From a virus (lineage: Monodnaviria > Loebvirae > Hofneiviricota > Faserviricetes > Tubulavirales), in the IMG/VR virus record IMGVR_UViG_2675903650_000001: DNA of 7,677 nt. One strand, written 5' to 3'. The notes under the pieces were generated by a model. That model was not told the origin of the DNA. It did no database searches and saw only the letters and a program-made list of their open reading frames with translations. The position numbers and the translations under genes are program-made. Shown one piece after another: positions 5,627 to 6,674 of the stretch (within the stretch, counting starts at the first letter, position 1; the number at the start of each line of letters is the position of its first letter).

Positions 5627-6674
5627 CCGCTCGCCGCAGACCCAGCGACCGAACGTAGTGAGCGAGTGGTCGAGGAAGCGGAAAGGTACCATTACCGGCC
5701 CCGGGCACTTACGCTCTGCTGCCTGCTTCGGGCACTTATGCTCTTTGCTGACATGGTCAACCAGCTTACTGGCTGTGCAGAACCCGACGCGTACAGGCGA
5801 TGGTGTTGCCTGTTGATGAAACTGATGGCTGACAGCGTGCCCCCCTGTAGTGTGCACCGCAGCTTAATCCGTGCTTTGTTTCCATGGACTGCACCTGCCT
5901 GCCGGACTGACAGGTCTGACGGATGAACAGAGAGGCAGAATGCTTCAGTTGCGCGTGTGATGGCACCGCTCGCCGCAGACCCAGCGACCGAACGTAGTGA
6001 GCGAGTGGTCGAGGAAGCGGAAAGGCACCATTACCGGCCTCGGGCACTTACGCTCTGCTGCCTGCTTCGGGCACTTATGCTCTTTGCTGACATGGTCAAC
6101 CAGCTTACTGGCTGTGCAGAACACGACGCGTACAGGCGATGGTGTTGCCTGTTGATGAAACTGATGGCTGACAGCGTGCTCCCCTGTAGTGTGCACCGCA
6201 GCTTAATCCGTGCTTTGTTTCCATGGACTGCACCTGCCTGCCGGACTGGCAGGTCTGACGGATGAACAGAGAGGCAGAATGCTTCAGTTGCGCTTGTGAT
6301 GGCACCGCTCGCCGCAGACCCAGCGACCGAACGTAGTGAGCGAGTGGTCGAGGAAGCGGAAAGGCACCATTACCGGCCCCGGGCACTTATGCTCTTTGCT
6401 GACATGGTCAACCAGCTTACTGGCTGTGCAGAACCCGACGCGTACAGGCGATGATGTTGCCTGTTGATGAAACTGATGGCTGACAGCGTGCTCCCCTGTA
6501 GTGTGCACCGCAGCTTAATCCGCGCTTTGTTTTCATGGACTGCACCTGCCTGCCGGACTGGCAGGTCTGATGGATGAACAGACAGGCAGAATGCTTCATC
6601 TTCGCGTGTGGTGGTACCGCTCGCCGCAGATCCGGCGACCGAACGCAGTGAGCGAGTGATCGAGGAAGCGGAAT
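5627..6674. repeat. Tandem direct repeat array: 339-bp unit, copies at 5627-5965, 5966-6304, 6305-6616 (312 bp, with a 27-bp internal deletion) and partial 6617-~6674
   Basis: The string ccgctcgccgcagacccagcgaccgaacgtagtgagcgagtggtcgaggaagcggaaagg recurs at 5627, 5966 and 6305, with a diverged copy at 6617. Copies 1-3 are near-identical by eye. The array starts 13 bp after the gI stop and ends ~40 bp before the gIV-like start. Confidence 0.9.

Follow-up and report, generated by a model that had tools for sequence, protein, structure and literature searches.

Why would a filamentous phage carry several copies of a sequence that resembles the region downstream of the ColE1 plasmid origin? The stretch that raises this question, which we call the window, is IMG/VR record IMGVR_UViG_2675903650_000001 over its full 7,677 nucleotides (nt), a 7.7-kb part of a filamentous phage (inovirus) genome with every gene on the + strand. 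An array of a 57-nt motif sits in its 1.1-kb non-coding gap from gene I to gene IV. The motif is a bona fide homologue, in sequence and structure, of the ColE1 ssiA / pBR322 PAS-BH primosome assembly site (pas), on the strand that an inovirus packages. We think it likely that it is a ColE1-ssiA-type primosome assembly site acting as a complementary-strand origin through PriA-dependent priming, a function that we infer. In plasmids, ssiA (n'-pas) is a signal on the displaced strand for PriA-dependent lagging-strand priming, near a DnaA box (PMC3167613, PMC3640518), and it is present in pUC-type constructs (PMC3167613). The four copies of the motif in the window are:

5627-5683, + strand: pas-like motif copy 1 (ColE1 ssiA / pBR322 PAS-BH homologue), covariance model R1 76.6 bits
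5966-6022, + strand: pas-like motif copy 2, same sequence as copy 1
6305-6361, + strand: pas-like motif copy 3, same sequence as copy 1
6617-6673, + strand: pas-like motif copy 4, a variant, 93% identical, R1 69.6 bits

The initial annotation had started from the copy at 5966 and listed others at 5627, 6305 and 6617; all of them were found, on the same strand, with spacings of 339, 339 and 312 nt. Copy 1 begins 13 nt past the gene I stop codon, and the unique sequence leading to gene IV adjoins copy 4. Compared with copies 1-3, copy 4 has the stem GATC/GATC for GACC/GGTC, which is a compensatory change, and the loop CGCAG for CGTAG. The same variant is also the last copy in two related phages, L001 and L012.

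Homology to the plasmid primosome assembly site

The pBR322 sequence quoted in the initial annotation was right: CCGCTCGCCGCAGCCGAACGACCGAGCGCAGCGAGTCAGTGAGCGAGGAAGCGGAA occurs verbatim in 52 fetched loci, many of which are pUC-type vector contamination. Aligned with pBR322/pUC and with ColE1, copies 1-3 match in 47/57 aligned columns with one gap, so the earlier estimate of about 50 of 60 positions was slightly generous but essentially right, and the two shared blocks that had been pointed out, CCGCTCGCCGCAG and GAGGAAGCGGAA, are exact. When 5000 composition-preserving shuffles were aligned to the pBR322/pUC variant, the best of them scored 42 columns, compared with 47 for the real motif. pBR322 is not the closest relative of the motif; closest are small plasmids of enterobacteria, Col(MG828)-type and others, which match it in 55/57. 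A BLAST search of 7.3 Gb of plasmid sequence found a homologue in at least 5000 records, with E-values down to 3e-20. Homology to the small plasmids spans ~105 nt and includes a downstream box, GCACTTACGC, which is found at about the same distance (21-25 nt) in most of the plasmid and phage homologues. In the window this box is present as follows:

5705-5714 and 6044-6053, + strand: downstream box GCACTTACGC, 21 nt past the motif
6383-6392, + strand: downstream box, copy 3 form GCACTTATGC
6695-6701, + strand: downstream box of copy 4, GCACTTA only

Covariance model R1 gives the window copies 70-77 bits and ColE1 80 bits. The heptamer GAAGCGG (AAGCGG), a common element of n' sites, occurs once per motif copy, for a window total of 6 against 0.96 expected. 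Unlike its counterpart in ColE1 and pBR322, the phage motif belongs to the Col(MG828)-type variant, in which there is an additional base and ACGTAGT replaces GCGTAGC; it forms a tandem array, and its host replicon is a filamentous phage and not a theta plasmid, with no RNAII/RNAI origin or DnaA box nearby (a DnaA-box search found none near the repeats). An Rfam scan of the window (E<=1) gave no match.

The position of the homologue in the plasmids is informative. RNAII is antisense to RNAI and starts 555 nt from the origin. The ColE1 homologue (NC_001371) occupies 1309-1365 of the + strand, and Rfam puts RNAI at 645-749 of the - strand. The ColE1 motif is thus ~110-170 nt beyond the origin in the downstream direction, and its strand is the RNAII-sense one, which Pol I displaces. 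In the pUC-type sequence a different sequence directly follows the motif, which we take to be the lac region, and by our own count in pUC19 the motif presumably starts ~113 nt downstream of the RNA/DNA switch. As pUC constructs have ssiA, this presumed lac boundary and the count would place ssiA in the short stretch past the switch. The motif homologue is therefore downstream of the ColE1 origin, where ssiA is described (PMC3167613, PMC3640518), as the initial annotation had supposed. We strongly infer that the motif overlaps the factor Y effector site of pBR322.

Other occurrences of the motif were of several kinds. Matches in the phage database were small unannotated or plasmid-like records and isolated hits in large tailed-phage records, with no inovirus among the matches to deposited phages, and a megablast with the complete window as query gave no match among deposited phages either. 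Eight further IMG/VR contigs with the motif are not relatives of the window inovirus: L008, L009, L014, L015, L022, and three (L013, L017, L021) that resemble cloning-vector constructs and contain either lambda-like structural genes or a TEM-type beta-lactamase. L027 and about 50 other genome_contigs loci are short contigs, assigned to Streptomyces, Nostoc and other unlikely hosts, with the exact pUC/pBR322 variant followed by what we take to be the lac region. The motif on these short contigs is cloning-vector contamination of public assemblies.

Strand and covariation of the motif

Which strand of the motif would be active, relative to the packaged strand, had been raised by the initial annotation. 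In the Inoviridae the gene-sense strand is the packaged strand. Since the window is from an inovirus and its genes are all on the + strand, the strand bearing GAAGCGG is the packaged one; going by this property of the family, the active-sense strand is thus the strand found in the virion. The phage is like ColE1 and pBR322 in this respect, where the active-sense strand is also the strand that becomes single-stranded.

For structure, 36 distinct variants of the motif were collected from plasmids, genomes and phages with a search pattern that fixed only the two end blocks, and 35 sequences with their flanks were aligned for a covariation test. Both sides of a pair had changed in 43 cells, compared with 14.5 +/- 3.1 in shuffled alignments (0/500 reached 43), and the number of such cells drops to 5-12 if the partners are slid by 1-3 columns. 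Similarly, 82.6% of cells are paired, compared with 28-42% after sliding. This covariation supports two helices, and the covarying hairpin is the same in the phage motif and in ColE1 ssiA / pBR322 PAS-BH. The middle stem occurs as GTTTAT/ATAAAC (in phages), CTCAT/ATGAG, CCTGT/ACAGG, GCCC/GGGC, GACC/GGTC and GATC/GATC. In the inner hairpin, one pair is C-G in 28 sequences and G-C in 5, tandem G.A pairs are present in 32/35, another pair is G-C in 19 and A-T in 14, and then a C-G pair closes a loop that is mostly GNA. Ten G.T pairs are found across the variant alignment. Because of the tandem G.A pairs, the GNA loops and these G.T pairs, we assign the hairpin to the GAAGCGG strand and not to its complement.

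On the packaged + strand, the motif would form an imperfect hairpin with an outer stem CCGCT/AGCGG, a variable middle stem, and an inner stem made of tandem G.A pairs and a C-GNA-G mini-hairpin, with the conserved GAGGAAGCGG in the 3' arm. The central mini-hairpins in the window are:

5653-5659, 5992-5998 and 6331-6337, + strand: ACGTAGT (C-GNA-G core)
6643-6649, + strand: ACGCAGT, in copy 4

A consensus of GCGNAGC has been given for such mini-hairpins, and GNA/GNNA mini-hairpins are reported to recur at single-stranded DNA priming sites (review, PMC13037366). The ColE1 centre GCGTAGC and the pBR322 centre GCGCAGC both fit GCGNAGC, and some variants carry GCGTTAGC at the mini-hairpin. The window copies (ACGTAGT/ACGCAGT) do not match the consensus GCGNAGC / GCGNNAGC, their outer pair being A-T, but they keep the C-GNA-G core.

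Covariation by itself cannot separate DNA folding from RNA folding, and the motif is directly upstream of gene IV with its strand transcribed. The hairpin might then act as RNA or as a duplex DNA site, in gene IV control, in recombination or transfer, or in packaging. We consider this very unlikely. The same element is found in thousands of plasmids that have no gene IV-like gene after it, and the ColE1 copy is exactly where ssiA is described. Apart from the lack of an Rfam match, a scan of 5500-6800 on both strands found no promoter-like sites and one chance-level terminator. A strong hairpin with dif-like arms, which could serve in integration or packaging, is located elsewhere, in the main intergenic region of relatives.

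Conservation in relatives and the proposed role

E. coli 100416 has relatives of the window phage as tandem prophages beside hipBA, and others occur in a Citrobacter youngae IncHI1B/FIB plasmid and in further IMG/VR contigs. A distant clade, with proteins 50-70% identical, is found in E. coli chromosomes and in an IncC plasmid of Proteus and carries an IS110-family transposase and traX. In every relative that continues past gene I, 13 nt separate the gene I stop from the motif, which is on the gene-sense strand, and this position and orientation are kept across clades with 50-100% protein identity. Copy number is more variable: there is one copy in L019 (97-99% identical proteins), L010, L011 and L152, two in L012, three in L001, L144, L002 and L018, and four in the window. 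In the single-copy phages the gap between gene I and gene IV is ~110 nt and consists of the stop, 13 nt, the motif, ~25 nt, GCACTTACGC and the gene IV start. The ground state of this phage group is one copy in an intergenic region of this size. Covariance model R1, run on both strands of complete prophages, found no further site. Four IMG/VR contigs (L145, L148, L149, L151) end exactly at the gene I stop, just before the array, which may be due to prophage-boundary trimming or to assembly breaks at the repeats; because of these ends, copy numbers from short-read assemblies should be treated with care.

This pattern bears on the idea that the motif is a passive relic of plasmid recombination with no replication role, and the array neutral junk. 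The motif and ~45 nt downstream of it are nearly identical to small plasmids, relatives are integrated in conjugative plasmids, and copy number varies freely among near-identical phages, all of which would suit a relic. On the other hand, the 13-nt position past gene I and the orientation persist across clades with 50-70% identical proteins, compensatory stems occur within the phage lineage (GTTTAT/ATAAAC in L011, L152 and L154, and GATC/GATC in copy 4), and in single-copy phages the motif fills nearly the whole intergenic region. We find a relic unlikely.

As a primosome assembly site, the motif could work in the following way. After entry, and on + strands displaced in rolling-circle replication, the hairpin would stay free of SSB and be recognised by PriA, which together with PriB and DnaT would recruit DnaB-DnaC and DnaG. 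The primosome would then prime the complementary (minus) strand and convert single-stranded DNA to the replicative form, as in phiX174. The viral strand of the phiX174 F-G intergenic region has GAAGCGG and a GNA mini-hairpin, GCGAAGC, and like the phage motif this pas is on the packaged strand of a single-stranded DNA phage, in an intergenic region and away from the + origin. The proposed role, PriA-dependent minus-strand priming, is also the same. However, nothing is alignable beyond the heptamer, R1 finds no match in the phiX174 fragment, and phiX174 belongs to a different family, the Microviridae.

Within the inoviruses, the motif can be compared with the Ff phages (M13/f1/fd), whose minus-strand origin is a hairpin pair in the main intergenic region that mimics a promoter and is primed by RNA polymerase. 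The job proposed for the motif is the same, a complementary-strand start on an inovirus packaged strand, but the site described here lacks promoter-like hexamers, is found in the gap from gene I to gene IV and belongs to the PriA-site family. An Ff-type RNA-polymerase-primed origin does not fit a motif that is outside the main intergenic region, with no promoter-like sites in 5500-6800. Engineered filamentous phages with a plasmid n'-pas are the classical assay for such sites and show that the arrangement can work, and Ff miniphages have tandem origin duplications. Unlike in those vectors and miniphages, the arrangement here is natural and conserved in a lineage, and the duplicated part is the candidate minus origin and not the + origin.

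Several points weigh against a complementary-strand origin. The outer stem contributes no covariation information, both motif ends being fixed by the search pattern. When the motif, 114-nt segments and the whole 339-nt unit were folded as single-stranded DNA on both strands, the z-scores were -1.0 to +0.6, and the stability of the motif is not exceptional; folding stability alone neither supports the hairpin nor tells the strands apart. Of the fold that the initial annotation had proposed to look for, the hairpin is borne out by covariation, while the folding energy is unremarkable. The window copy of the phage may itself be defective, with a deletion in gene IV and gene II cut. The pas may also be auxiliary, as relatives could hold a minus origin of the RNA-polymerase type in their main intergenic region, from gene IV to gene II. 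Finally, relatives manage with one pas, so that no function need be sought for the presence of four.

A more far-reaching proposal would be that a whole lineage of enterobacterial filamentous phages uses a plasmid-type PriA site instead of an Ff-type origin, that the ~100-nt cassette is exchangeable with thousands of plasmids, and that its amplification is selected, for a faster replicative form or for manipulation of host PriA. Taken as a whole, we regard this as rather unlikely.

In the literature searched and in deposited phage genomes, we found no description of a natural inovirus with a primosome assembly site, and a plasmid-type primosome site in a natural filamentous phage is a sensible but so far undescribed arrangement. 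Among filamentous phages, the minus-strand start is known mainly for Ff and IKe. If the motif does act as we propose, these phages would be natural inoviruses dependent, like phiX174, on the replication-restart primosome of the host (PriA, PriB, DnaT), and dependence on host factors would be predicted, for example resistant priA, priB and dnaT mutants. It would also mean that a replication module moves between plasmids and single-stranded DNA phages. The set of variants gives a covariation-supported structure for ssiA, which is widespread and present in most cloning vectors.

The repeat array and the surrounding phage genome

The motif copies are separated by three spacers:

5684-5965, + strand: spacer 1, 282 nt, non-coding
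6023-6304, + strand: spacer 2, 282 nt
6362-6616, + strand: spacer 3, 255 nt, without one internal 27-nt repeat and with TGG -> TGA in the + frame open reading frame (ORF)

Whether each repeat unit begins with the motif, as had been stated, holds or not depending on the choice of unit boundary, and the array is better written as pas-(282-nt spacer-pas)n. Spacer 1 has a direct 27-nt duplication, 5702-5728 and 5729-5755. The 27-nt segment (CGGGCACTTAYGCTCT...) is duplicated at 5702-5755 and 6041-6094 and single at 6380-6406, and includes the box, GCACTTAYGC, that is found downstream of the plasmid motif. The 312-nt period exists because unit 3 has a single 27-nt segment.

The spacers had few features of their own. 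Compared with the rest of the window, the spacer scored 18, where shuffles had a mean of 16.7 and a maximum of 24, which is chance. A search of plasmids and phages gave no match to the spacer outside the phage relatives, the spacer end has a weak resemblance to the gene I end that is not significant, and the spacer has no unusual fold and no promoter or terminator.

The units do contain reading frames, ORFs of 93-107 amino acids (aa) spanning each one, and in the window these include:

5603-5926, + frame: ORF of 107 aa over the repeats
5957-6265, + frame: ORF of 102 aa over the repeats
minus (-) strand: three 93-aa ORFs over the repeats

Hypothetical proteins are annotated here in L001, L143 and L144, with RefSeq annotating both strands, and one could suppose that the unit codes for a small protein and that the plasmid-like motif is merely part of its coding sequence. 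We give this next to no credence and rejected the unit ORFs as a protein-coding gene. Most unit copies have a TGA that closes the + frame (window unit 3, unit 2 of L001, and the displayed units of L002 and L018), the units differ by frameshifting indels of 1 nt and 4 nt, and Pfam gave no match. Across codon positions the 53 variable sites fall as 17/13/13 in the + frame and 14/10/10 in the - frame, with no bias, and the gap in single-copy relatives is too short for such ORFs.

Between clades that share ~70% DNA identity in their genes, the spacer is 87-93% identical. In the distant clade the array is flanked by a partial spacer before the first motif and by a diverged spacer start after the last motif, which is degenerate, and these spacer-derived flanks are the trace expected of in-place tandem duplication. 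In the window clade, the flanks of the array are the same as in single-copy phages. From these comparisons, the most likely history is that the 339-nt unit (pas plus 282-nt spacer) arose by tandem duplication in the distant clade with the IS110-family transposase and traX, then entered the window clade by recombination through the conserved pas, and now grows and shrinks in number (1-4 copies) by unequal recombination. The 339-nt repeat is a polymorphic non-coding amplification, probably derived from the distant phage clade. About fourfold amplification had been noted at the outset, and four copies there are, but the amplification is recent and polymorphic and not the core of the element.

Selection for more copies might also be considered, since additional primosome sites could speed the minus-strand start, as in the origin duplications of Ff miniphages, or could titrate PriA. 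Two phage clades and several hosts have arrays of 2-4 copies, and all four window copies keep the structure, copy 4 via its compensatory changes. But the near-identical phage L019 manages with one copy, the last copy of the distant clade is degenerate (42-49 bits compared with ~75), and the spacers show no sign of function. We doubt that the array was selected; the amplification is probably incidental, and the array looks like ordinary repeat dynamics.

The distant clade has its IS110-family (RNA-guided) transposase gene just upstream of gene II, and its traX (F-pilin acetylase) between gene I and the repeat array; these genes are at 480-1442 and 7996-8757 in L002 and at 6241-7203 and 13757-14518 in L143. 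One copy of this clade interrupts the eut operon, and some E. coli genomes have up to 20 spacer copies.

The strong hairpin mentioned above was seen in L144, a near-identical relative whose prophage is in tandem beside hipBA, near dif. Its main gene IV-gene II intergenic region (11893-12300) has a very strong, long + strand hairpin (z = -7.4) whose arms carry the half-sites AGTGCGCATAA ... TTATGTTGAAA, which are dif-like XerC/XerD half-sites by what we take to be the dif consensus. The long hairpin resembles the folded single-stranded attP of CTXphi.

The genes of the window are, in order:

1-1578, + strand: Phage_GPA-type replication endonuclease, 5' end cut
1609-2034, + strand: gene V-sized ORF
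2367-2609, + strand: major-coat-sized ORF
2661-4025, + strand: gene III, Phage_Coat_A domain and Gly/Ser repeats
4025-4384, + strand: gene VI-sized ORF
4402-5613, + strand: gene I (Zot-family assembly ATPase, Pfam PF05707), left edge of the intergenic region
6712-7677, + strand: gene IV (secretin, Pfam PF00263), right edge of the intergenic region

The gene I product, pI, is at most 35% identical to the nearest characterised inoviruses. The secretin is 321 aa in the window and 402 aa in near-identical relatives, with residues 117-197 (81 aa) gone through an in-frame deletion in the N-terminal part, at window position 7052-7057, and by this deletion the window copy of the phage may be export-defective. 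At the other end, window nt 1-27 are unmatched to gene II of relatives and identity is 99% from nt 28 on, leaving the replication protein without ~150 N-terminal residues; the window start is either a mosaic junction or a cut prophage. Gene III has Gly/Ser-rich tandem repeats at 3278-3529, with periods of 15, 30, 39 and 78 nt, which are the usual flexible linker of pIII-like proteins.

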